A stretch of DNA of 64,000 nt from Saccharopolyspora erythraea NRRL 2338. GTDB lineage: Bacteria; Actinomycetota; Actinomycetes; Mycobacteriales; Pseudonocardiaceae. The stretch lies in assembly GCF_000062885.1 (NCBI RefSeq), contig NC_009142.1, forward strand, positions 1,103,584 to 1,167,583. Reading direction: 5' to 3'. A program made the translations under genes and the position numbers. The notes under the pieces are model-generated. The model ran no database searches, was not told the origin of the DNA, and worked only from the letters and a program-made list of their open reading frames with translations. Below are positions 25,617 to 34,189 of the stretch, piece after piece. The first letter of the stretch is position 1. Every line of letters starts with the position of its first letter.

Positions 25617-26606
25617 TCAGTCGTTGGCGTGCAGGGCGGCGTTCAGCTCGACCTTGCCGCCGGTGCGCGGCGCGACCTCGACCGCGCCGGTGCTGGAGTT
25701 GCGGCGGAACAGCAGCCCGGTCGAACCCGACAGCTCGCGGGCCTTGGTGATCGTGCCGTCCGGCAGCGTGACCTTGGTGCCCGCCGTGACGTAGAGGCCG
25801 GCCTCCACCACGCAGTCGTCGCCGAGGGAGATGCCCGCGCCGCCGTTGGCGCCGATCAGGCAGCGCTCGCCGACGGAGATGACCTCCTTGCCGCCACCGG
25901 ACAGCGTGCCCATGATCGAGGCGCCGCCGCCGAGGTCGGAGCCGTCGCCCATCACCACGCCGGCCGAGATGCGGCCCTCGACCATGGAGGCGCCCAGCGT
26001 GCCGGCGTTGAAGTTGACGAAGCCCTCGTGCATCACGGTCGTGCCGCTGGCCAGGTGGGCGCCGAGGCGCACCCGGTCGGCGTCGCCGATGCGCACGCCC
26101 GACGGCGCCACGTAGTCGACCATGCGCGGGAACTTGTCGATGCTGTAGACGGTGACCGGTCCGCGGGCGCGCAGCCGCAGGCGGGTCGCCTCGAAGCCTT
26201 CCACCGGGCACGGGCCGTGGTTGGTCCACACGACGTTGGACAGCAGGCCGAACATGCCGTCGAGGTTCTGGCCGTGCGGGCGCACCAGCCGGTGCGACAG
26301 CAGGTGCAGGCGCAGGTAGAGGTCGTGCGCGTCGGCGGGCTCGTCGGACAGCCGGGAGATCTCGGTGCGCACCGCCACGACGTCGACGCCCCGGGCGTCG
26401 TCGCGACCGACCAGCGCAGCGCCGGCCTCGCCGAGCGACTGCGCGGCCTCCTCGGCGGACAGGCGCCGGGTGCCCGACTCCCCGGGCTCGCCGAGCCGGA
26501 CGGTGGGGAACCAGGTGTCCAGCACGGTGCCGTCATCGGTGATGGTGGCCAGGCCGACGCCGTGGGCTCCGGTGGTCTGCGGGTCGGGAGTGAGTGCACT
26601 GCTCAT
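25617..26606 (-). CDS. dapD: 2,3,4,5-tetrahydropyridine-2,6-dicarboxylate N-succinyltransferase (actinobacterial type)
   Basis: Hexapeptide-repeat left-handed beta helix ([38 protein letters not shown]); 329 aa; matches Rv1201c-type DapD. Confidence 0.85.
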
Positions 26607-26756
26607 GGCTGAAAACCGTAATCGGCGCTGGTGACCACTGCTAGCAAGGGTCGCGCGAAGACCGGCCGCAGGCGCCTCGCCGAGCCTCCGGTCGGGGCTT
26701 CACCCGGGGCTCTCACCTGCTGTTTTCCGTGGCGTCCCGGGTGGGTCGGCGGCCCC

Positions 26757-27330
26757 GGGGCGGGCAGTCGGCGGCAGCGGTGTAGGCGGCATCACAGGTC
26801 CGCGGCCGACTGCCGGGTGCGTCGGCCCAGGCTGCCCTGCGGCAGGTGGCACCCGGTGCTGAGGCTGAGGATGGTGTTGCTCGCCGTCCTGAACCGGTAG
26901 ACCGCCCCGAACCCGTCGGTGGCCTCGATCTCGTGGTCGCCGGGACGGTCCACGACCGGCCTGGCGCCCCGAACCCGTAACCGGCGGTGAACCTCGGCAG
27001 CGACCCGGACTGCCTCCGGCCAGCCTCGTCGGGGATGTTCGCCTCGCGGGTCCACCGGTCGAGGGTCCGGCTCTCGGCCTCGGTGACGCCGGGGACTCCG
27101 CGCAACCGGCCCGGCTCGCCTCCCCGTCGTTCACCCACGAGGACACGCCGAGCTCCGCGGCCCGCCGGTCGCGCAGCTCCTGCTGCATCCGGTCGTAGCG
27201 GTCGCCGACCTCCTCGATGGAGGGGCGTTGCCGCAGCGCGGCACCGTCATCGGGCGCGCTCGCACACCCGGCGGCCAGCAGTGCGGTGAGGATCAGCGCT
27301 GCCGAAATGCCTGCCGTCGAACGCGCGTCG
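26757..27330 (-). pseudogene. Decayed tandem paralogue of the downstream lipoprotein gene (multiple frameshifts)
   Basis: Three different frames each match parts of the intact copy: signal/lipobox LTALLAAGCAS, ALRQRPSIEE..., ...VVDRPGDHEIEATDGFGAVYRFRTASNTILSLSTGCHLPQG; DNA-level similarity of 26760-26900 to 27338-27480. Confidence 0.6.
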
Positions 27331-27337
27331 AGGGGGT

Positions 27338-27850
27338 TTATCCGCCCTGTGGCAGGTGGCAGCCGGTGCTGACGGTCAGAAGGGTGTTCTTCGCGGTGCC
27401 GAACAGGTAGCTGGCGCCGTACTGGTCGGTGGCGGTGATCTCGTGGTCACCGGCGCGGTCGACGACGACCTCCACGGCACCGAAGCCGTACTGGGCGGTC
27501 ACCTCGGCGACGATCTCGACCGCCCGCGGCCAGTCGGCGTCGGGGAGATTGCCGGCCGAGCGCCACGACTCCAGCACGCGGGTCTCGCCGCCGAGGTTGG
27601 GGAAGTCCGCGCAGCCCGCGCTGCTCATCGGCTCGCGCGGGGTCCAGTTCAGCGACCCGATCTCGGCGGACAGCCGCTCCCGGACCGCGCGCTGCATCTC
27701 GTCGTAGCGGGCGCTCGCCTCCTCGATGCTCGGCCGCTGCTGGAGGGTCGCGCGCTGGTCTTCCACATCTCCCCCGGGGGTCGTGCCCGGCCGGCCCGCG
27801 CATCCCGCGGCGAGCACGGCGCAAAGCGTGAACAGAACTAGCTTCTTCAT
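27338..27850 (-). CDS. Secreted lipoprotein (LppA-like family), candidate immunity-type protein
   Basis: [19 protein letters not shown] lipobox; 170 aa; start overlaps the stop of the upstream hydrolase gene. Confidence 0.7.
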   Translation of the reverse strand: MKKLVLFTLCAVLAAGCAGRPGTTPGGDVEDQRATLQQRPSIEEASARYDEMQRAVRERLSAEIGSLNWTPREPMSSAGCADFPNLGGETRVLESWRSAGNLPDADWPRAVEIVAEVTAQYGFGAVEVVVDRAGDHEITATDQYGASYLFGTAKNTLLTVSTGCHLPQGG

Positions 27851-29551
27851 CAGAACAGGTCCCGGATCTTCGAGGGTGCCCACGAGATGTAGTCACCGAC
27901 GCCTCGGCCCTCGCCGCGCACAGTGCGGTCGGGCAGGCCGGCGACCACGGCGGCCATGTTGTGCTGGCTGGTGCTGTCGTCGGCGACGTAACCGTTGTGC
28001 CCCGTGGACTCGCTGAGCTTCTGCCGGCCATCGGGTTCGGTGGACTCCTTGGCGGAGAGGTCCTGGACGCCCTCCATGTGCGTGGGGTCTCCGCCGAACC
28101 GGCCGAAGTCGGCGACCGGGTCGTTGCGCGCCTCGATCCGGTAGGTGTGCCCCTCGGGCACGTGGAGGTCCTCGACGTCGTCGGTGCCGACACCTGGCGA
28201 GCCGAAGACGATCGCGTCGTCCACGCCGTGGCCGCCGCCCTGCAACGCGTATCCGGTCGTGGTCGAACCGTAGGAGTGCCCGAGCGCGGTCAGGTGCGGG
28301 TCGGTGTCGCGGGAGGCGTTGATGCCCTTGAAGAACTCGTTCAGCTTCGCGCCGCCGTTCTCAGCGGCGTCGGACCGGGTCACCGAGTTCTCGTGCCACG
28401 GCGCGTGCTCGTGGTCCTGCGGTGTTTCGTAGCCGATCCAGCTGATCGCGGCGACCTGGCCGCCCTCGCCGTGGCGGTCGCTCTCGTGCTGGGACTGCGC
28501 GCGGAGCTGGTTCATCTGGTGGTCGAGACCCTCGAGGGTGCCGTTCACCGTGCTGTTGAGCCCCGGCGTGAACACCGAGACGTGGTCGGCGGTGTCCACG
28601 TCGCCGACCGCCACCGCGGCCTTGAGGCGCTCTCCGCTGGAGTCCAGCACCAGCAGCTGCCTGGACGGCTGCCGTTCCAAGGTCTTCTCGACGGCGCCGA
28701 TCGACTCGATCTTGTGCGTGACCTCCTCGAGCCGCTTGCGCTCGTCGTCGGAGACACCGCCCCGTTCGATCTCGGCCTTCTCGGCGTTGAGCGCTTCGCG
28801 CTCGTCGTCGATGCGGTTGCGGTTGGCCACGTCGCGGACCTGGGCGGGGATGCCGTCGCGGTTGCCGAGCCAGGCGGGCGGGGCCTTGCGCAGGGCCTCC
28901 TGCTCCTCCGGTGACAACGACTTCCACCACTTGGCGTTCTCCTCCGGAGTGCCGTTCCGCGGGGCGTCGATGGTCGCGGCCAGGCCGCGGGAGTCGCCGG
29001 TCGCGGCGTCGTCGGCGAGCGAGCCGCCGCGGCCGGGGTCCATGAGGTTCCTGTCGGCGTCGGCGAGGACCTTCGCCAGCTCGTCGTCCGCCCGGTTGGC
29101 GCGTTGGAGGACCGTGCGGATGTTCTCCACGATCTGGTCGCGGATGCGGATGCGCTCCTGCTTGACCTGTTCGACCTGGTCCTCGGGCACGTCGTCGGGC
29201 GGTGCGACGTCGCGGACGCCGCCCTCGGCGGTGATCTCGAAGCCGTGGCCCTCGGCCAGGTCGTCGGACTCGCGGAGCAACCGGCGGATCGCCTCCACCT
29301 CGTCCGTGGTTTCCGCGACCGCGCGGCGGACCCCCGCCACCTCGACCACCAGCTCACGCATCACCCGCGTCAGTCCCGCGTGGCTCTGCGCCGCGGCGTC
29401 GGCGGCCTGGCCGCGCCACCCCTCGGGCCGCGCGGAGCCCTCGAGCTCGTCGTCGAGGCCGACCAGCCGGTCCTTGTGCTTGCCGAGGGCGGCGAAGACC
29501 TTCTCCAGCGCGTCCGGCTCCCACCTGCGGACGTCGGAAAGCGACACCATC
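27850..29551 (-). CDS. WXG100-like N-terminal domain fused to C-terminal alpha/beta hydrolase (DUF1023/Abhydrolase_8-like), candidate secreted effector
   Basis: Start [22 protein letters not shown]; WXG-like motif [14 protein letters not shown] at ~residue 55; nucleophile elbow [11 protein letters not shown]; no signal peptide; the ORF-track start at 29679 is an extension. Confidence 0.65.
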
Positions 29552-29864
29552 AGCCGGCCTGCTCCTTCATGTCCGCGGCGATGCGGCCGAAGGCGTCGGC
29601 ACCGGCCTGCTCGTTGCGTCCGTACTCCGCGGCGGCCGAGTCCAGGGCCGCGCCGTGGTCGCCCGCGCCGCGGCTCCACGCCCGGATGGTCTCGCTCCAG
29701 CTCCGCGACACGCGGTCCGCGGCCTGCGCGGACCGGCCGCCGGGCAGCGCGGCGGCCAGGTCGGTCGCGGCGGAGCCGAGGTCGGTCCCGGCGGCCTGGT
29801 CACCGGCGGACTTCGCCTTCGCGGCGGCCTGGCGAAGGGTCTGCGTGGCGGCTTCGTAGCTCAC
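29550..29864 (-). CDS. Small alpha-helical protein (~104 aa), putative partner of the WXG-hydrolase
   Basis: GTG start; [26 protein letters not shown]...[18 protein letters not shown]...; overlaps the downstream gene start by 2 nt. Confidence 0.5.
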
Positions 29865-29920
29865 TGCCCACCTCCGGCGGGCAGGCTATCCCGATCAAGT
29901 GGCTCGGGAGGGGCGATTCG

Positions 29921-31030
29921 GTGAATACGGGTAGCCTGCCCGACGTGACCGCCGAGCTGAACCTCACCGCAGATCCCGTCGAGCTCACCGCCGCCCTGGT
30001 GGACATCCCGAGCGTCTCGGGCGACGAGAAGCTCATCGCCGACGCCGTCGAGCACGCGCTTCGCGAGCAGGCACCGCACCTGGAGGTCATCCGCAACGGC
30101 GAGGCCGTGCTGGCCAGGACGAACCTCGGCCGCGGCTCCCGGGTGGTGCTCGCCGGTCACCTGGACACCGTGCCGGTCAACGACAACCTGCCGTCGCACC
30201 GCAGCGGCTCGGGCGACGACGAGCTGCTCCACGGCTGCGGCACCACCGACATGAAGGGCGGCGACGCGGTGATGCTCGGCATCGCCGCCGGGCTCACCGA
30301 CCCGCGCCACGACCTGACCTTCCTGTTCTACGACTGCGAGGAGGTCGAGGCCGAGCGCAACGGCCTGAACCGCATCGAGCGGGAGCTGCCGGAATGGCTC
30401 GACGGCGACCTCGCGGTGGTCCTGGAGCCGTCGAACGCGGCGATCGAGGCCGGGTGCCAGGGCACGCTGCGGGTCGAGGTCCGCACCGAGGGCGCGCGGG
30501 CGCACACGGCGCGGGCGTGGATGGGCGAGAACGCCATCCACGCGGCGCAGCCGATCCTCAAGCGCCTCGTCGACTACACGCCGAGGCAGCCCACGATCGA
30601 CGGCCTGCACTTCCACGAGGGGCTGCAGGCGGTGCGGATCGCCGGTGGCGTCGCGGGCAACGTCGTCCCGGACAGCTGCGTGGTGACGGTGAACCACCGC
30701 TTCGCCCCGGACCGCTCCCTGGCCGAGGCGGAGGCGCACGTGCGGGAGGTCTTCGACGGCTTCGAGGTGACCCTGACCGACGGGTCGCAGGGCGCGCTGC
30801 CGGGGCTCACGGCCCCCGCGGCGGCGGAACTGGTCGCGGCGTCCGGTCAGGCGCCGGTGGCGAAGCTGGGGTGGACCGACGTCGCGCGGTTCGCAGCGCG
30901 CGGGCTGCCCGCGGTGAACTTCGGCCCTGGCTCCCCGACGCTGGCCCACACGCAGCAGGAACACGTGCCTGTGTCGCAGATCCGCCACTGCGCCCAGGCC
31001 CTGCGCCGCTTCCTCAGCCAGGAGGGCTGA
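29921..31030 (+). CDS. dapE: Succinyl-diaminopimelate desuccinylase (M20 family)
   Basis: GHLDTVP, DMKGG, His/Glu zinc ligands typical of the M20 family; ~369 aa from a GTG start; divergent from dapD as in M. tuberculosis Rv1201c/Rv1202, but here separated by the insertion. Confidence 0.8.
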
Positions 31031-31396: not shown

Positions 31397-32605
31397 TCAG
31401 TCGGCGCCGGTCGTGGTCCAGGACTGGCCGAGGGGTCGGTGCGAATCAGGCCTGAAGTCCGAGAAGCCGGGTTCTTCGTCGTCCGGTACCTGCCGGGGCT
31501 GAGGCGTCTCGGCATTGCCGGGTTCGCCGGCCATACGTGAACGCCGCCCGGGTTCGTCATCCGCTGGGTCGGCCTGCCGCACCAGGTCCTCGTCCTGCTC
31601 CTGAGCCTCCTCCTGCGCCAGTTGCTCCCCGCGTGCCGGGGCCTCCCCGGGCGCCGGGGCTGCCGCCCCGAGCTCCTCCTGCCGCCCGCCGGCCTCCAGG
31701 CGCTCCGCGCCCGCCGGCCGCTCCGCGTCGGCCGGCCCGGCGCCCGCCAGGCGCTCCGCGCCCGTCGGCCAGGCCGGCTCCGCCGGCCGGTCCGGCTCCG
31801 GGCGCCGCGGCTCCGGCGCCGCCGAAGGCTGCGCGGCCTCGCCACCGCCCTGATCCGACTTGACCTTCTCGACGAACCGCAGCAGCTCGACCGGGAAGGG
31901 CAGCACGAGCGTGGAGTTCTTCTCCGCCGCCACCTCGACGACCGTTTCCAGCAGCCGGAGTTGCAGCGCCGCCGGGGTGTCGGCCATGACGGTCGCGGCG
32001 TCGGCGAGGCGCTGCGACGCCTGGTACTCGCCGTCGGCGGCGATGACCCGGGAGCGCCGTTCCCGCTCGGCCTCGGCCTGGCGGGCGATCGAGCGCTTCA
32101 TCGACTCCGGCAGCGAGACGTCCTTGATCTCCACCCGGTCGATGTGCACGCCCCAGCCCAGCGCCGGGTTGTCGATCATCAGCTCCAGCCCCTGGTTGAG
32201 CCGCTCCCGGTTGGACAGCAGGTCGTCGAGGTCGCTCTTGCCGATGATCGAGCGCAGCGACGTCTGCGCGACCTGACCGACCGCGAACAGGTAGTCCTCG
32301 ACGTTGACGATGGCGCGCGCGGCGTCCTCCACCTTGAAGTAGACGACGGCGTCGACCCGCACGGTCACGTTGTCGCGGGTGATGCCCTCCTGCGCCGGGA
32401 CCGGCATGGTGACGATCTGGAGGTTGACCTTCCGGAGCCGGTCCACCGCCGGGACGATCGTGGTAAGGCCCGGCCCGCGGGTGTGCTCCTGCAGCCGGCC
32501 GAACCGGAACACCACGCCGCGCTCGTACTGCTTGACGACCTTCACCGCGGACGCCACGTAGACAACGACGAGCACGAGTGCTACGAGCAACCCCTCGATG
32601 ATCAT
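31397..32605 (-). CDS. SPFH/band-7 (stomatin/HflK-like) membrane protein with C-terminal low-complexity repeat tail
   Basis: N-terminal TM then KVVKQYERGVVFRFGRL...IVTMPVPAQEGITRDNVTVRVDAVVYFKV; tail AERLAGAGPADAERPAGAERLEAGG. Confidence 0.8.
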   Translation of the reverse strand: MIIEGLLVALVLVVVYVASAVKVVKQYERGVVFRFGRLQEHTRGPGLTTIVPAVDRLRKVNLQIVTMPVPAQEGITRDNVTVRVDAVVYFKVEDAARAIVNVEDYLFAVGQVAQTSLRSIIGKSDLDDLLSNRERLNQGLELMIDNPALGWGVHIDRVEIKDVSLPESMKRSIARQAEAERERRSRVIAADGEYQASQRLADAATVMADTPAALQLRLLETVVEVAAEKNSTLVLPFPVELLRFVEKVKSDQGGGEAAQPSAAPEPRRPEPDRPAEPAWPTGAERLAGAGPADAERPAGAERLEAGGRQEELGAAAPAPGEAPARGEQLAQEEAQEQDEDLVRQADPADDEPGRRSRMAGEPGNAETPQPRQVPDDEEPGFSDFRPDSHRPLGQSWTTTGAD

Positions 32606-32837: not shown

Positions 32838-33641
32838 ATGCTTACTCTCGATCGCATGACGATTGAGGGCCCCTGGGGCACGCCGAACGGTGCCGAGCAC
32901 CCGCAGGAGAAGCAACGCGGACCGGTGGTCCTGCGCCGGTCGAGGCTGGCCGAGCCCACCACGACCGACCAGCGCCTGCTCGACTCGCGCGGCCCGTCGG
33001 ACTGGGTGCACACCGATCCGTGGCGGGTGCTGCGGATCCAAGCGGAGTTCGTCGAGGGCTTCGGCGCGCTGGCCGAGGTGCCGCGGGCGGTGACCGTCTT
33101 CGGGTCGGCCAGGACCCCGCGGGAGCACCCCGAGTACGCCGCGGGGATGGAGCTGGGCGCGGCGCTGGCCGCCATCGGCTGCGCGGTGATCACCGGGGGC
33201 GGCCCCGGCACGATGGAGGCGGTCAACCGGGGCGCCTCGGAGGCGGGCGGCCTCTCGATCGGGCTCGGCATCGAGCTGCCCTTCGAGCAGGGGCTCAACC
33301 CGTGGGTCGACCTCGGCGTCAACTTCCGCTACTTCTTCGCGCGCAAGACGATGTTCATCAAGTACGCGCAGGCGTTCATCTGCCTGCCCGGTGGCTTCGG
33401 CACGATGGACGAGCTGTTCGAGTCGCTGACGCTGGTGCAGACCAAGAAGGTCACCAAGTTCCCGGTGGTGCTCTTCGGCAAGTCCTACTGGCAGGGCCTG
33501 TACGACTGGGTGCGCGACAGCATGCTCGCCACCGGCAAGATCGGCGAGAAGGAAATGGGCTTGTTGCACCTGACCGACGACATCGATGATGCCGTGAGCA
33601 TCGTCGAGGAGGCGTACCAGGCTTGGGAGGCCACGCATTGA
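32838..33641 (+). CDS. LOG-family protein (cytokinin riboside 5'-monophosphate phosphoribohydrolase-like), long form
   Basis: VFGSARTP...GGGPGTMEAVNRGA...CLPGGFGTMDELFE (PGGxGTxxE motif); Rv1205-like by position. Confidence 0.8.
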   Translation: MLTLDRMTIEGPWGTPNGAEHPQEKQRGPVVLRRSRLAEPTTTDQRLLDSRGPSDWVHTDPWRVLRIQAEFVEGFGALAEVPRAVTVFGSARTPREHPEYAAGMELGAALAAIGCAVITGGGPGTMEAVNRGASEAGGLSIGLGIELPFEQGLNPWVDLGVNFRYFFARKTMFIKYAQAFICLPGGFGTMDELFESLTLVQTKKVTKFPVVLFGKSYWQGLYDWVRDSMLATGKIGEKEMGLLHLTDDIDDAVSIVEEAYQAWEATH

Positions 33642-34189
33642 ACGAGGAGCCGGCAACCGCGGCGGTCTGCGTCTACTGCGCGTCCCGCCCGGTCCCGCAG
33701 CAGTACCTCGACCTGGCCGCCGACGTCGGCACCGGCATCGCCAAGCGCGGCTGGTCGCTGGTCTCCGGCGGCGGCCGGGTGTCCATGATGGGCGAGGTGA
33801 CGCGCGCTGCCCGGGCGGGCGGCGCGCGGACCGTCGGCGTGATCCCGCGTGCGCTGGTCGACCTGGAGGTCGCCGACAGCGACTCCGACGAGCTGCTGGT
33901 CGTCGACACCATGCGCGAGCGCAAGGGCCTTATGGACGCGCACGCCAGCGCGTTCATGGCCCTGCCGGGCGGTATCGGCACGTGCGAGGAGCTGTTCGAG
34001 GTGTGGACCTCGCGCTACCTCGGCATGCACGCCAAGCCGGTGGTGCTGCTGGACCCGGACGGCCACTACCGCGGGCTGCTTGACTGGCTGCGCGGCATGG
34101 TCGACAGCGGTTTCGCGAGCAGCAGCTCGCTGGAGGCGCTGAGCGTCGTCACCGACGTGGAGGCCGCGCTCGACGCCTGCGCGCCGTGA
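33638..34189 (+). CDS. LOG-family protein, short form (second tandem paralogue)
   Basis: VYCASRP...SGGGRVSMMGEV...ALPGGIGTCEELFE; TTG start overlapping the preceding stop. Confidence 0.75.
   Translation: MNEEPATAAVCVYCASRPVPQQYLDLAADVGTGIAKRGWSLVSGGGRVSMMGEVTRAARAGGARTVGVIPRALVDLEVADSDSDELLVVDTMRERKGLMDAHASAFMALPGGIGTCEELFEVWTSRYLGMHAKPVVLLDPDGHYRGLLDWLRGMVDSGFASSSSLEALSVVTDVEAALDACAP

Follow-up and report, generated by a model that had tools for sequence, protein, structure and literature searches.

A small helical-hairpin protein as the proposed type VII export-arm partner of a WXG-domain hydrolase in Saccharopolyspora erythraea

Within a 64,000-nt stretch of the Saccharopolyspora erythraea NRRL 2338 chromosome (the window), the gene of a 104-aa protein overlaps with the start of a gene for a large hydrolase that has a WXG-like N-terminal module. 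With a probability of roughly 0.7, the small protein is a PE/EspC/EsxB-like export-arm partner of this hydrolase in type VII secretion (T7SS). Complementary motifs are present on the two adjoining units, i.e., YxxxD/E on the small protein and W45/G47 on the hydrolase N-terminus, and the linkage of the two genes was found to follow the N-terminal module of the larger protein.

The small gene and the downstream hydrolase gene

The following features were localized, with both ribosome-binding sites recognized by reading of the sequence:

29871..29875, minus strand: GGAGG ribosome-binding site of the small ORF, six nt before the GTG
29550..29864, minus strand: gene of the small helical-hairpin protein, which is proposed to be the T7SS export-arm partner of the hydrolase encoded downstream
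29562..29567, minus strand: AAGGAG ribosome-binding site of the hydrolase gene, within the 3' end of the small ORF
29548..29552, minus strand: TGATG junction of the two genes, base 29550 being both the last of the small-ORF stop and the first of the hydrolase start codon
27850..29550, minus strand: putative 566-aa effector with an N-terminal WXG/EspA-like helical module and a C-terminal Abhydrolase_8 (DUF1023) domain
29011..29550, minus strand: N-terminal delivery module of the hydrolase (about residues 1-180), on which the small protein is proposed to dock
29410-29418, minus strand: W45-x-G47 of the hydrolase, within the N-terminal module
28096..28629, minus strand: Abhydrolase_8 catalytic domain (residues 308-485; PF06259, E 1e-41)
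28267-28281, minus strand: G-H-S-Y-G nucleophile motif, invariant in a 14-sequence alignment

The first-pass annotation had described an Ala-rich ORF of 104 aa with a GTG start, and its coordinates, size and composition proved to be accurate. The ORF extends on the minus strand from the GTG at 29864-29862 to the TGA stop at 29552-29550. The product contains 30 Ala (29%), has a pI of 5.25 and begins with MSYEAATQ; the 18-residue stretch quoted in that annotation corresponds to residues 54-71. The GC contents at the three codon positions (0.75/0.64/0.95) resemble those of genuine neighbouring genes, and no such pattern was found in the overlapping frames. A hypothetical protein of S. erythraea NRRL 2338 is 100% identical with the small protein. 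The small ORF is a real gene, beyond a chance ORF. The overlap with the hydrolase start, which had been given as 2 nt, is in fact 1 nt, as the hydrolase ATG occupies 29550-29548. A scan for promoters and terminators yielded nothing informative. Chance ORFs are plentiful at the GC content of the window, 72.6%, with 55 ORFs of 50 aa or more counted over 8 kb.

Reading of the hydrolase N-terminus revealed no apparent signal peptide. In the hydrolase family alignments W45 is invariant and G47 is mostly conserved, and the N-terminus lacks a conserved Y. It weakly matches the WXG100, EspA_EspE and PPE models. For EspA_EspE (PF18879), the match of the window hydrolase is below the threshold (E 0.0018-0.054), 14 of 26 relatives match, and the N-terminal consensus reaches 24.2 bits at a cut-off of 27. 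A comparison of the small family with the hydrolase N-terminal family by hhalign was not significant (probability 0.7%), and no detectable sequence homology is claimed between the two putative hairpins. Searches for solved structures with the hydrolase and LppA sequences found nothing.

Predicted fold, family and conserved motif of the small protein

The AF2 model of the small protein, computed with an alignment of 43 sequences, is a helical hairpin with a pLDDT of 90 and supersedes a run with three sequences (pLDDT 66). Helices were predicted at residues 3-39 and 44-103, separated by a turn at 40-43. The helical character that had been proposed is thus borne out by the model, as is the hairpin fold, for which a structure prediction had been recommended. 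In the model, Y81 lies on the part of helix 2 that runs past the beginning of helix 1. Nearly all top Foldseek matches were EsxA/EsxB and PE25/PE5 proteins, the best TM values being 0.74-0.76 (T. curvata 4lws_A); PDB entries 2vrz and 3gvm were also among the structural matches. Size and predicted shape agree with those of WXG100 proteins, i.e., 104 aa in comparison to about 100 and a helix-turn-helix.

An exhaustive HMMER search (E <= 1e-3) yielded a family with 294 cluster representatives; almost all are 95-110 aa long and align end to end with the small protein. The conservation of alignment columns was counted over 124 members. The best-kept columns are an (L/M)-P-G turn, W56 and Y81-x-x-x-[D/E]85. 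P41 is kept in 114 and G42 in 121 of the 124 sequences, and at position 40 every one of them has L, M, I or V and none has W. The two motifs map to the following codons:

29739..29747, minus strand: L40-P41-G42, conserved hairpin turn that occupies the place of W-x-G in WXG100 proteins
29610..29624, minus strand: Y81-G-R-N-E85, YxxxD/E motif at the paired hairpin end (Y81 kept in 119/124, D/E85 in 123/124 family members)

Judged by its sequence, Y81xxxE85 is the general T7SS export motif, located just past the helix-turn-helix. The role of YxxxD/E in type VII export has been described, and in known systems WxG carriers are paired with YxxxD/E carriers, the latter motif residing on the co-secreted partner (PMC6107294).

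Profile searches did not place the small protein in an established family. It had no match to WXG100 (PF06013 / TIGR03930) at E <= 1 and none to EspC (PF10824), and it passed no Pfam or NCBIfam threshold. Neither a Pro-Glu motif near the N-terminus nor a match to PF00934 was found, and the hairpin turn contains L40-P41-G42 instead of W-x-G. At the level of the family, 57 of the 124 members weakly match EspC (E <= 0.1) and 39 weakly match WXG100 (best E 8.7e-5). The family consensus reached 22.3 bits against EspC and covered 93 of the 100 profile positions, and it also failed the Pfam gathering threshold of 23.5. Among PDB entries, PE25 matches the family profile best (E 1e-3); in this alignment, YxxxE coincides with YATAE of PE25. 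A precomputed PF10824 assignment is present on a few relatives of the small protein. DUF3130, DUF3958 and other Lap families were not found among the matches of the 124 members.

Taken together, the profile matches are weak but agree in leading to PE25, EspC and WXG100. On sequence grounds, the small protein falls outside WXG100 in the strict sense, as its turn is L-P-G without W and its scores stay below all Pfam and NCBIfam thresholds. EspC and PE25 appear to be its nearest models, rather than the Firmicute Lap/LcpA families. The first-pass annotation had suggested a WXG100-like partner or chaperone with an EsxB- or LcpA-like role; this suggestion is supported, with the two refinements just given. 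The reading as a secretion partner is supported by the nearly invariant YxxxD/E after the hairpin throughout the family and by the invariant W of WxG in the hydrolase N-terminus. In the same way, the two motifs are divided between the partners in PE/PPE, EsxB/EsxA and EspC/EspA (PMC6107294).

Linkage to the N-terminal module and alternative explanations

With the hydrolase alignment as a query, 79 homologous loci were located. In about 65 of them, a member of the small family is encoded directly upstream on the same strand. These loci span Pseudonocardiales, Micrococcales, Propionibacteriales, Kineosporiales and Mycobacteriales. For 60 pairs the starts could be assigned with confidence; the gap between the two genes ranges from -4 to +12 nt, and the same 1-nt overlap occurs in 19 of them. 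Conservation of the ORF together with the hydrolase gene, on which the earlier proposal had been made to depend, was thus found.

In Nocardioides, homologues of the small protein precede proteins of 525-529 aa that resemble the hydrolase only from residue 1 to about 180 (E about 1e-27 to 1e-31) and have a different C-terminus matching no Pfam family. The downstream genes differ as well, encoding 157-aa and 128-aa proteins versus LppA. As the Nocardioides partner shares only the N-terminal 180 aa or so, the small protein goes with the WXG delivery module and not with the enzyme. The pairwise distances between small proteins follow those of the N-terminal 100 aa of the hydrolase (partial r 0.44 given the C-terminus); for the C-terminus, with the N-terminus controlled for, the partial r is 0.10. 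A kept N-terminal module, an exchanged C-terminus and correspondingly changed downstream genes are the marks of polymorphic toxins. The polymorphism among the cassettes is limited to two architectures.

Linkage and module tracking would be equally compatible with a cytoplasmic chaperone or stabiliser, which keeps the hydrolase module soluble or delivers it and is released unsecreted; co-secretion and release at the membrane look alike in the computations. Chaperones dedicated to T7SS are known (PMC6109436). However, the best-kept feature of the small protein is YxxxD/E, the motif borne by the co-secreted partner in known systems (PMC6107294), and the small protein has the predicted fold of Esx and PE substrates, unlike a known chaperone fold such as that of EspG. 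We therefore regard a chaperone as rather unlikely. The weak likeness to EspC and WXG100 would also fit an independent Esx/EspC-like secreted protein, e.g., a membrane-active or filament-forming one, that is co-transcribed without forming a specific complex; some WXG100 proteins do form homodimers (e.g., PDB 2vrz, 3gvm). This is improbable in view of the near-obligate adjacency, with stop and start codons overlapping or abutting across orders, and of a divergence that correlates specifically with the N-terminal module of the hydrolase, which the small protein follows even when the C-terminal domain has changed. In addition, the small protein lacks WxG, which its neighbour supplies.

That the cassette is unrelated to type VII secretion is a still more doubtful explanation. 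The hairpin would then be structural or regulatory, the enzyme intracellular or exported otherwise, and the presence of YxxxD/E and WxG coincidental. T7SS genes are not adjacent, all family matches are sub-threshold, a hairpin is a generic fold, and within Saccharopolyspora the cassette has a conserved chromosomal site, dapE-dapD. In contrast, two independent motifs lie at the structurally expected positions in two adjacent proteins, and the sub-threshold matches are consistently to T7SS substrates (EspC/PE on the small side, WXG100/EspA/PPE on the hydrolase side). Furthermore, a hydrolase without an apparent signal peptide is here paired with an exported lipoprotein. Least probable is a role of the small protein in self-protection, as an immunity protein or antitoxin against the hydrolase within the producer cell, in spite of the tight coupling to a putative toxin gene and a fast evolution of the small protein (77% identity between strains versus 96-97% for the flanking genes). 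Immunity genes change together with the toxin domain, whereas the small protein stays homologous despite the C-terminal swap and the downstream genes (LppA versus the 157-aa and 128-aa proteins) change instead. The upstream position, the substrate-type hairpin and the export motif also argue against it. This reading was rejected, as the small protein is unchanged when the toxin domain changes.

Known systems, proposed mechanism and a possible effector-immunity cassette

The proposed export-arm partner was compared with four kinds of small T7SS proteins. To our knowledge, such partners have so far been elucidated in two settings only, the PE/PPE and Esp pairs of mycobacteria and the LXG toxins of Firmicutes. 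EspC/EspA and EspF/EspE of mycobacterial ESX-1 (PF10824, PF18879) are the Pfam models that both window families approach most closely, and YxxxD/E follows the hairpin in the small protein as in EspC. The differences are that the large partner in the window ends in a serine hydrolase, that the turn is L-P-G, that the window proteins stay below both Pfam thresholds, and that the host is not a mycobacterium and is reported with ESX-4-type clusters only. The gene order espA-espC is the reverse of that of the small gene and the hydrolase gene. For PE/PPE (PE25-PPE41; PDB 4KXR, 4W4K, 2G38), the gene of the small partner immediately precedes that of the WxG partner, as here, and the export arm consists of YxxxD/E and WxG, as is likewise proposed here. 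Unlike PE/PPE, the window pair has no Pro-Glu motif, no PE/PPE Pfam membership and no sign of an EspG chaperone. PE/PPE proteins are, as far as we know, restricted to mycobacteria. EsxB/EsxA (CFP-10/ESAT-6; T. curvata 4LWS) share with the small protein the size of about 100 aa, the helix-turn-helix and the export motif on one partner. In contrast, the partner in the window is a domain of a 566-aa enzyme and not a second 100-aa protein, and W is absent from the turn of the small protein, whose scores are below the WXG100 thresholds.

The genes of the targeting factors Lap1-Lap4, some of which are known from the TelA-LapA3-LapA4 structure, lie upstream of LXG toxin genes; these small helical proteins bind the N-terminal helical domain of the toxin and supply an acidic export-arm motif beside the LxG/WxG turn (PMC10801868). 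The small protein resembles them in being helical and encoded directly upstream, abutting its partner gene in 60 loci and following the N-terminal module in both architectures. However, no sequence relationship to these Firmicute T7SSb factors was detected for the small family, there is one partner gene here in comparison to two or three there, and T7SSa would replace T7SSb. WXG-type N-terminal domains have been proposed to be T7SS trafficking domains that are combined with variable C-terminal toxin domains and adjacent immunity genes, also in Actinobacteria (Zhang et al. 2012, PMC3482391); compared with these polymorphic toxins, the present cassette type shows two architectures only.

Downstream of the hydrolase gene, the cassette continues with genes of the LppA family:

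27338..27850, minus strand: LppA-family lipoprotein of 170 aa with the lipobox LAAGC (PF16708, E 5e-50), proposed immunity protein or partner
26825..27341, minus strand: second, decayed LppA copy with an ATA start codon and a frame split over three frames

The hydrolase stop and the LppA start again form a TGATG junction with a 1-nt overlap at 27850. LppA is present downstream of the hydrolase in about 70 of the 79 loci, in one to four tandem copies. The decayed copy was traced by tblastn with an intact 173-aa copy from strain CP054839.

We infer a complex of the small protein with the hydrolase, its recognition by T7SS, co-secretion of the two proteins and a role for LppA. The small protein would serve the hydrolase as PE serves PPE, EspC serves EspA, EsxB serves EsxA and Lap proteins serve LXG toxins. 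Translation of the small gene and of the hydrolase gene would be coupled. With its hairpin, the small protein would pack antiparallel on the N-terminal helix-turn-helix of the hydrolase, and the resulting four-helix bundle would set Y81xxxE85 beside the W45xG47 turn. Together, the two motifs may form a composite signal for the type VII (ESX) secretion ATPase, and the complex, including the alpha/beta-hydrolase domain, would be exported without a Sec signal. LppA would have its site of action outside the membrane, and its simplest role would be that of an immunity protein. T7SS genes were found neither in the window nor adjoining the homologous cassettes; two ESX-4-type clusters are listed for S. 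erythraea NRRL 2338 (PMC4791881).

A more far-reaching reading is tentative, and we consider it possible rather than probable. The cassette of YxxxD/E hairpin, WXG-headed Abhydrolase_8 protein and LppA might be an undescribed, widespread actinobacterial type VIIa effector-immunity system, in which a serine esterase or lipase exported by an ancestral ESX-4-type system attacks the envelope of competitors and LppA on the outer membrane face of the producer protects it. The LppA family is named after LppA/LppB of M. tuberculosis, and the loci Rv2541-Rv2542-lppA-lppB and Rv2078-Rv2079-lppJ of that species may represent the same cassette. In the literature, Rv2543/Rv2544 are lppA/lppB, and an esterase or lipase function is predicted for Rv2079. 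Full-text literature searches found no description of the Abhydrolase_8/LppA pairing or of the small partner family, and the cassette was not found described in searches for DUF1023, PF06259, PF16708 and LppA in connection with T7SS.

The finding is useful for annotation and is unsurprising in kind, and the cassette would still be a conserved operon if the prediction failed. Y81/E85 of the small protein and W45 and S426 of the hydrolase offer a simple genetic handle. Small helical partners that supply an export motif are central to the type VII recognition of large substrates, and the small-protein family would extend this partner principle to ordinary soil actinomycetes. We know of few substrates assigned to the ESX-4-type systems of these organisms. 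DUF1023/Abhydrolase_8 and LppA, both of unknown function, are joined in one secretion-and-protection hypothesis. If the effector-immunity reading is true, it would provide a first function for DUF1023 and the LppA family as well as natural substrates for ESX-4-type systems outside the mycobacteria.

The small gene and its junctions

The first-pass annotation described a 104-aa, Ala-rich protein starting from GTG, and such an ORF was verified in the sequence (29% Ala, pI 5.25; the peptide quoted there comprises residues 54-71). The product is 100% identical to an S. erythraea NRRL 2338 protein recorded as hypothetical. The relevant features are the following.

29875-29871, minus strand: GGAGG, six nt upstream of the small-ORF GTG
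29864-29550, minus strand: small ORF, 104 aa, GTG start at 29864-29862, TGA stop at 29552-29550
29567-29562, minus strand: AAGGAG for the hydrolase gene, inside the small ORF
29552-29548, minus strand: TGATG junction, small-ORF stop and hydrolase ATG with one base in common
27852-27848, minus strand: TGATG junction, hydrolase stop and LppA start in the same arrangement
27338-27850, minus strand: LppA-family lipoprotein, 170 aa, PF16708 (E 5e-50), lipobox LAAGC
26825-27341, minus strand: second LppA copy, decayed, with ATA at the start-codon position

The proposed overlap with the hydrolase start exists, but its size is one nucleotide (TGATG) and not two. As stop and start codons overlap at both junctions, the small gene, the hydrolase gene and LppA form a three-gene chain. 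At the window GC content of 72.6%, chance ORFs of such a size are frequent (55 ORFs of 50 aa or more within 8 kb). The GC contents by codon position were 0.75/0.64/0.95 for the small ORF versus 0.73/0.46/0.95 for the hydrolase gene, and this pattern was absent from the alternative frames overlapping the small ORF. Unlike chance ORFs, the small ORF shares the coding signature of its neighbours.

The 566-aa hydrolase contains a PF06259 Abhydrolase_8/DUF1023 domain (residues 308-485, E 1e-41), and its GHSYG nucleophile motif is invariant across 14 homologues. Its N-terminus gave sub-threshold matches to WXG100, TIGR03930 and EspA_EspE, and no signal peptide was apparent there when the sequence was read by eye. 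In NRRL 2338 the second LppA paralogue has decayed into a pseudogene spread over three reading frames, with breaks near 27090 and 27020; S. erythraea CP054839 has an intact copy of 173 aa. The cassette is flanked by dapE (plus strand) and dapD (minus strand). By synteny with the homologous locus L001, a Band_7/SPFH-family gene was assigned at 31397-32605 (minus strand), the product of which has a long Pro/Ala/Glu-rich C-terminal tail with near-repeats (ERLAGAGPADAERPAGAERLEAGG), as well as two adjacent, overlapping LOG-type (Lysine_decarbox/LDcluster4) genes at 32838-33641 and 33623-34189 (both plus strand).

Conservation and divergence of the cassette

Retrieval with the hydrolase-homologue alignment yielded 79 loci from species-representative genomes. 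In about 65 of them the hydrolase gene is immediately preceded by a co-oriented small-family gene, so that the expected conservation of the small ORF with the hydrolase gene was borne out. For 60 pairs the start codons could be assigned with confidence, and here the gap ranges from -4 to +12 nt; 19 pairs overlap by 1 nt, as in the window, and four by 4 nt. The pair is spread over several orders and occurs in Saccharopolyspora, Kibdelosporangium, Amycolatopsis, Actinokineospora, Prauserella and Pseudonocardia, and also in Knoellia, Janibacter, Occultella, Cellulomonas, Rothia, Actinopolymorphaceae, Kineosporiaceae and some Rhodococcus. There are exceptions: at a Nocardioides jejuensis locus a canonical WXG100-like gene (WDG turn) is found upstream instead, and at some Rhodococcus and Nocardia loci the gene just upstream is WXG100-like and lies in the opposite orientation. 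No such neighbour is present at two Rhodococcus loci (L076, L078). The WXG100-like neighbours of these distant hydrolase homologues (L069 3619-3903, minus strand; L072; L074; L080; L075 2919-3239, plus strand), several of them divergent and not coupled, retain the turn W (WPG, WKE, WDG).

LppA genes follow downstream in one to four tandem copies in about 70 of the 79 loci. According to its Pfam entry, PF16708, LppA is a lipoprotein found only in pathogenic Mycobacterium. That description is too narrow in view of these loci, which come from many non-mycobacterial actinobacteria and in which LppA always stands just downstream of the Abhydrolase_8 gene. Outside the cassette, flanking genes are conserved within Saccharopolyspora only: the cassette lies between dapD and dapE in 14 of the examined Saccharopolyspora loci (L001, L003-L017), and not in other genera. 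In Actinotalea sp. BY-33 the cassette follows a called gene of the same orientation (L083 1-4915, plus strand), which is longer than 1600 aa and has no recorded Pfam match.

NRRL 2338 was also compared with one second S. erythraea strain.

Protein identity and dN/dS between the two S. erythraea strains
Small protein: 77%, dN/dS 0.78
Hydrolase: whole protein 85%; catalytic part dN/dS 0.19
LppA: 89%, dN/dS 0.29
dapE: 96%
dapD: 97%, dN/dS 0.19

Outside its few motif positions the small gene is under weak constraint, which fits a scaffold-like hairpin. In the comparison of 25617-31030 with L001, the cassette is far more diverged than its flanks, at synonymous sites as well (dS 0.17-0.31 versus 0.07 for dapD), and this may point to recombination or replacement.

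A family with a type VII export motif

A word-indexed search with the small protein found three close relatives only, and their profile seeded an exhaustive HMMER search that retrieved 294 cluster representatives (E <= 1e-3). Almost all of them align end to end and have lengths of 95-110 aa, so that the small protein is a member of a real, broad family. Column conservation in a 124-sequence alignment was highest at L/M40 (118/124), P41 (114), G42 (121), W56 (114), W63 (105), A78 (113), Y81 (119) and D/E85 (123). Y81 and D/E85 together make up Y-x-x-x-[D/E], the general export motif of type VII secretion.

The window protein matched none of the Pfam or NCBIfam models. Among family members, weak matches to Pfam EspC were obtained for 57 of 124 (best E 3.6e-7) and matches to WXG100 for 39 of 124; the consensus reached 22.3 bits on EspC versus a cut-off of 23.5, over profile positions 6-98 of 100. 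A few relatives carry an EspC-like label from their sources. Against the PDB, the top match of the family profile was PE25 (E 1e-3), with YxxxE aligned to YATAE, and a T. curvata Esx protein was also among the top matches (2e-3). The small protein lies outside WXG100, PE and, by threshold, EspC; the family is a new, sub-threshold branch of the WXG100/PE/EspC superfamily.

The suggested helical hairpin was recovered by AF2, the model quality depending on alignment depth (pLDDT 66 with three sequences, 90 with 43): helix 3-26/30-39, turn 40-43 and helix 44-103. Y81 sits at the point of helix 2 that passes the beginning of helix 1. This is the end of the paired hairpin, where the Y of PE and EsxB is likewise located.

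Proposed partnership with the hydrolase N-terminal module

In the N-terminal 105 aa of the hydrolase homologues W45 is invariant, G47 is mostly retained, and no conserved Y was found. Of 26 N-termini, 18 matched WXG100 and 14 EspA_EspE; the consensus scored 25.6 bits (cut-off 27.3) and 24.2 bits (cut-off 27), respectively, with weaker PPE and EspB_PPE matches. An ESAT-6-like protein was the best PDB match, and hhalign detected no homology between this family and the small family. T7SS substrates divide into carriers of YxxxD/E (EsxB, PE35, EspC, EspF) versus carriers of WxG (EsxA, PPE68, EspA, EspE), some of the latter with variable C-terminal domains (PMC6107294). The motifs of the small protein and the hydrolase N-terminus match this division.

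Ten loci were examined starting from the small protein. Six have the hydrolase architecture; in the other four, of Nocardioides type (L082 5001-7782, L086, L087, L089; between tmk/holB and topA), the small gene is followed by genes for proteins of 525-529, 154-157 and 127-133 aa. The 525-529-aa proteins align to the hydrolase profile only from position 1 to about 185 (E 1e-27 to 1e-31), lack a GxSxG motif and have no Pfam match in their C-terminal part; therefore, the N-terminal ~180 aa constitute a portable module. Their C-terminal domain is acidic, the 154-157-aa protein has no apparent signal peptide, and the 127-133-aa protein matches DUF3592 weakly. The small protein accompanies the N-terminal module, and the downstream genes switch with the C-terminal domain. 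Such a pattern is expected when a trafficking module comes with its targeting factor and a toxin domain with its immunity protein (PMC3482391), and it counts against the alternative that the small protein is itself the immunity factor, which would not be expected to stay with the module while the toxin domain changes. Mirror-tree analysis provides modest evidence in the same direction: small-protein pairwise distances tracked the hydrolase N-terminal 100 aa best (r 0.62; partial r 0.44 for N-terminus given C-terminus, 0.10 for the reverse), although similar evolutionary rates may contribute.

No T7SS machinery genes adjoin the cassette at any locus examined. Two ESX-4-type clusters are listed for S. 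erythraea NRRL 2338 and one for Janibacter sp. HTCC2649 (PMC4791881), which also has the cassette (L038). The targeting factors established for Firmicute LXG toxins are small helical proteins whose genes lie upstream of the toxin gene and whose acidic export-arm motif is placed next to the LxG/WxG turn (PMC10801868). A literature search in the searchable library found no publication on the cassette.

The proposal of a secretion partner for the WXG-hydrolase is supported by the YxxxD/E motif, the hairpin model and the linkage to the N-terminal module. Most likely, the small protein is a PE/EspC/EsxB-type export-arm partner, for which we infer complex formation and secretion with the hydrolase. 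Together with the WXG module it would form a four-helix bundle that would present its YxxxD/E motif to an ESX-type secretion ATPase, and LppA would probably act as the extracytoplasmic immunity protein to the putative hydrolase toxin.
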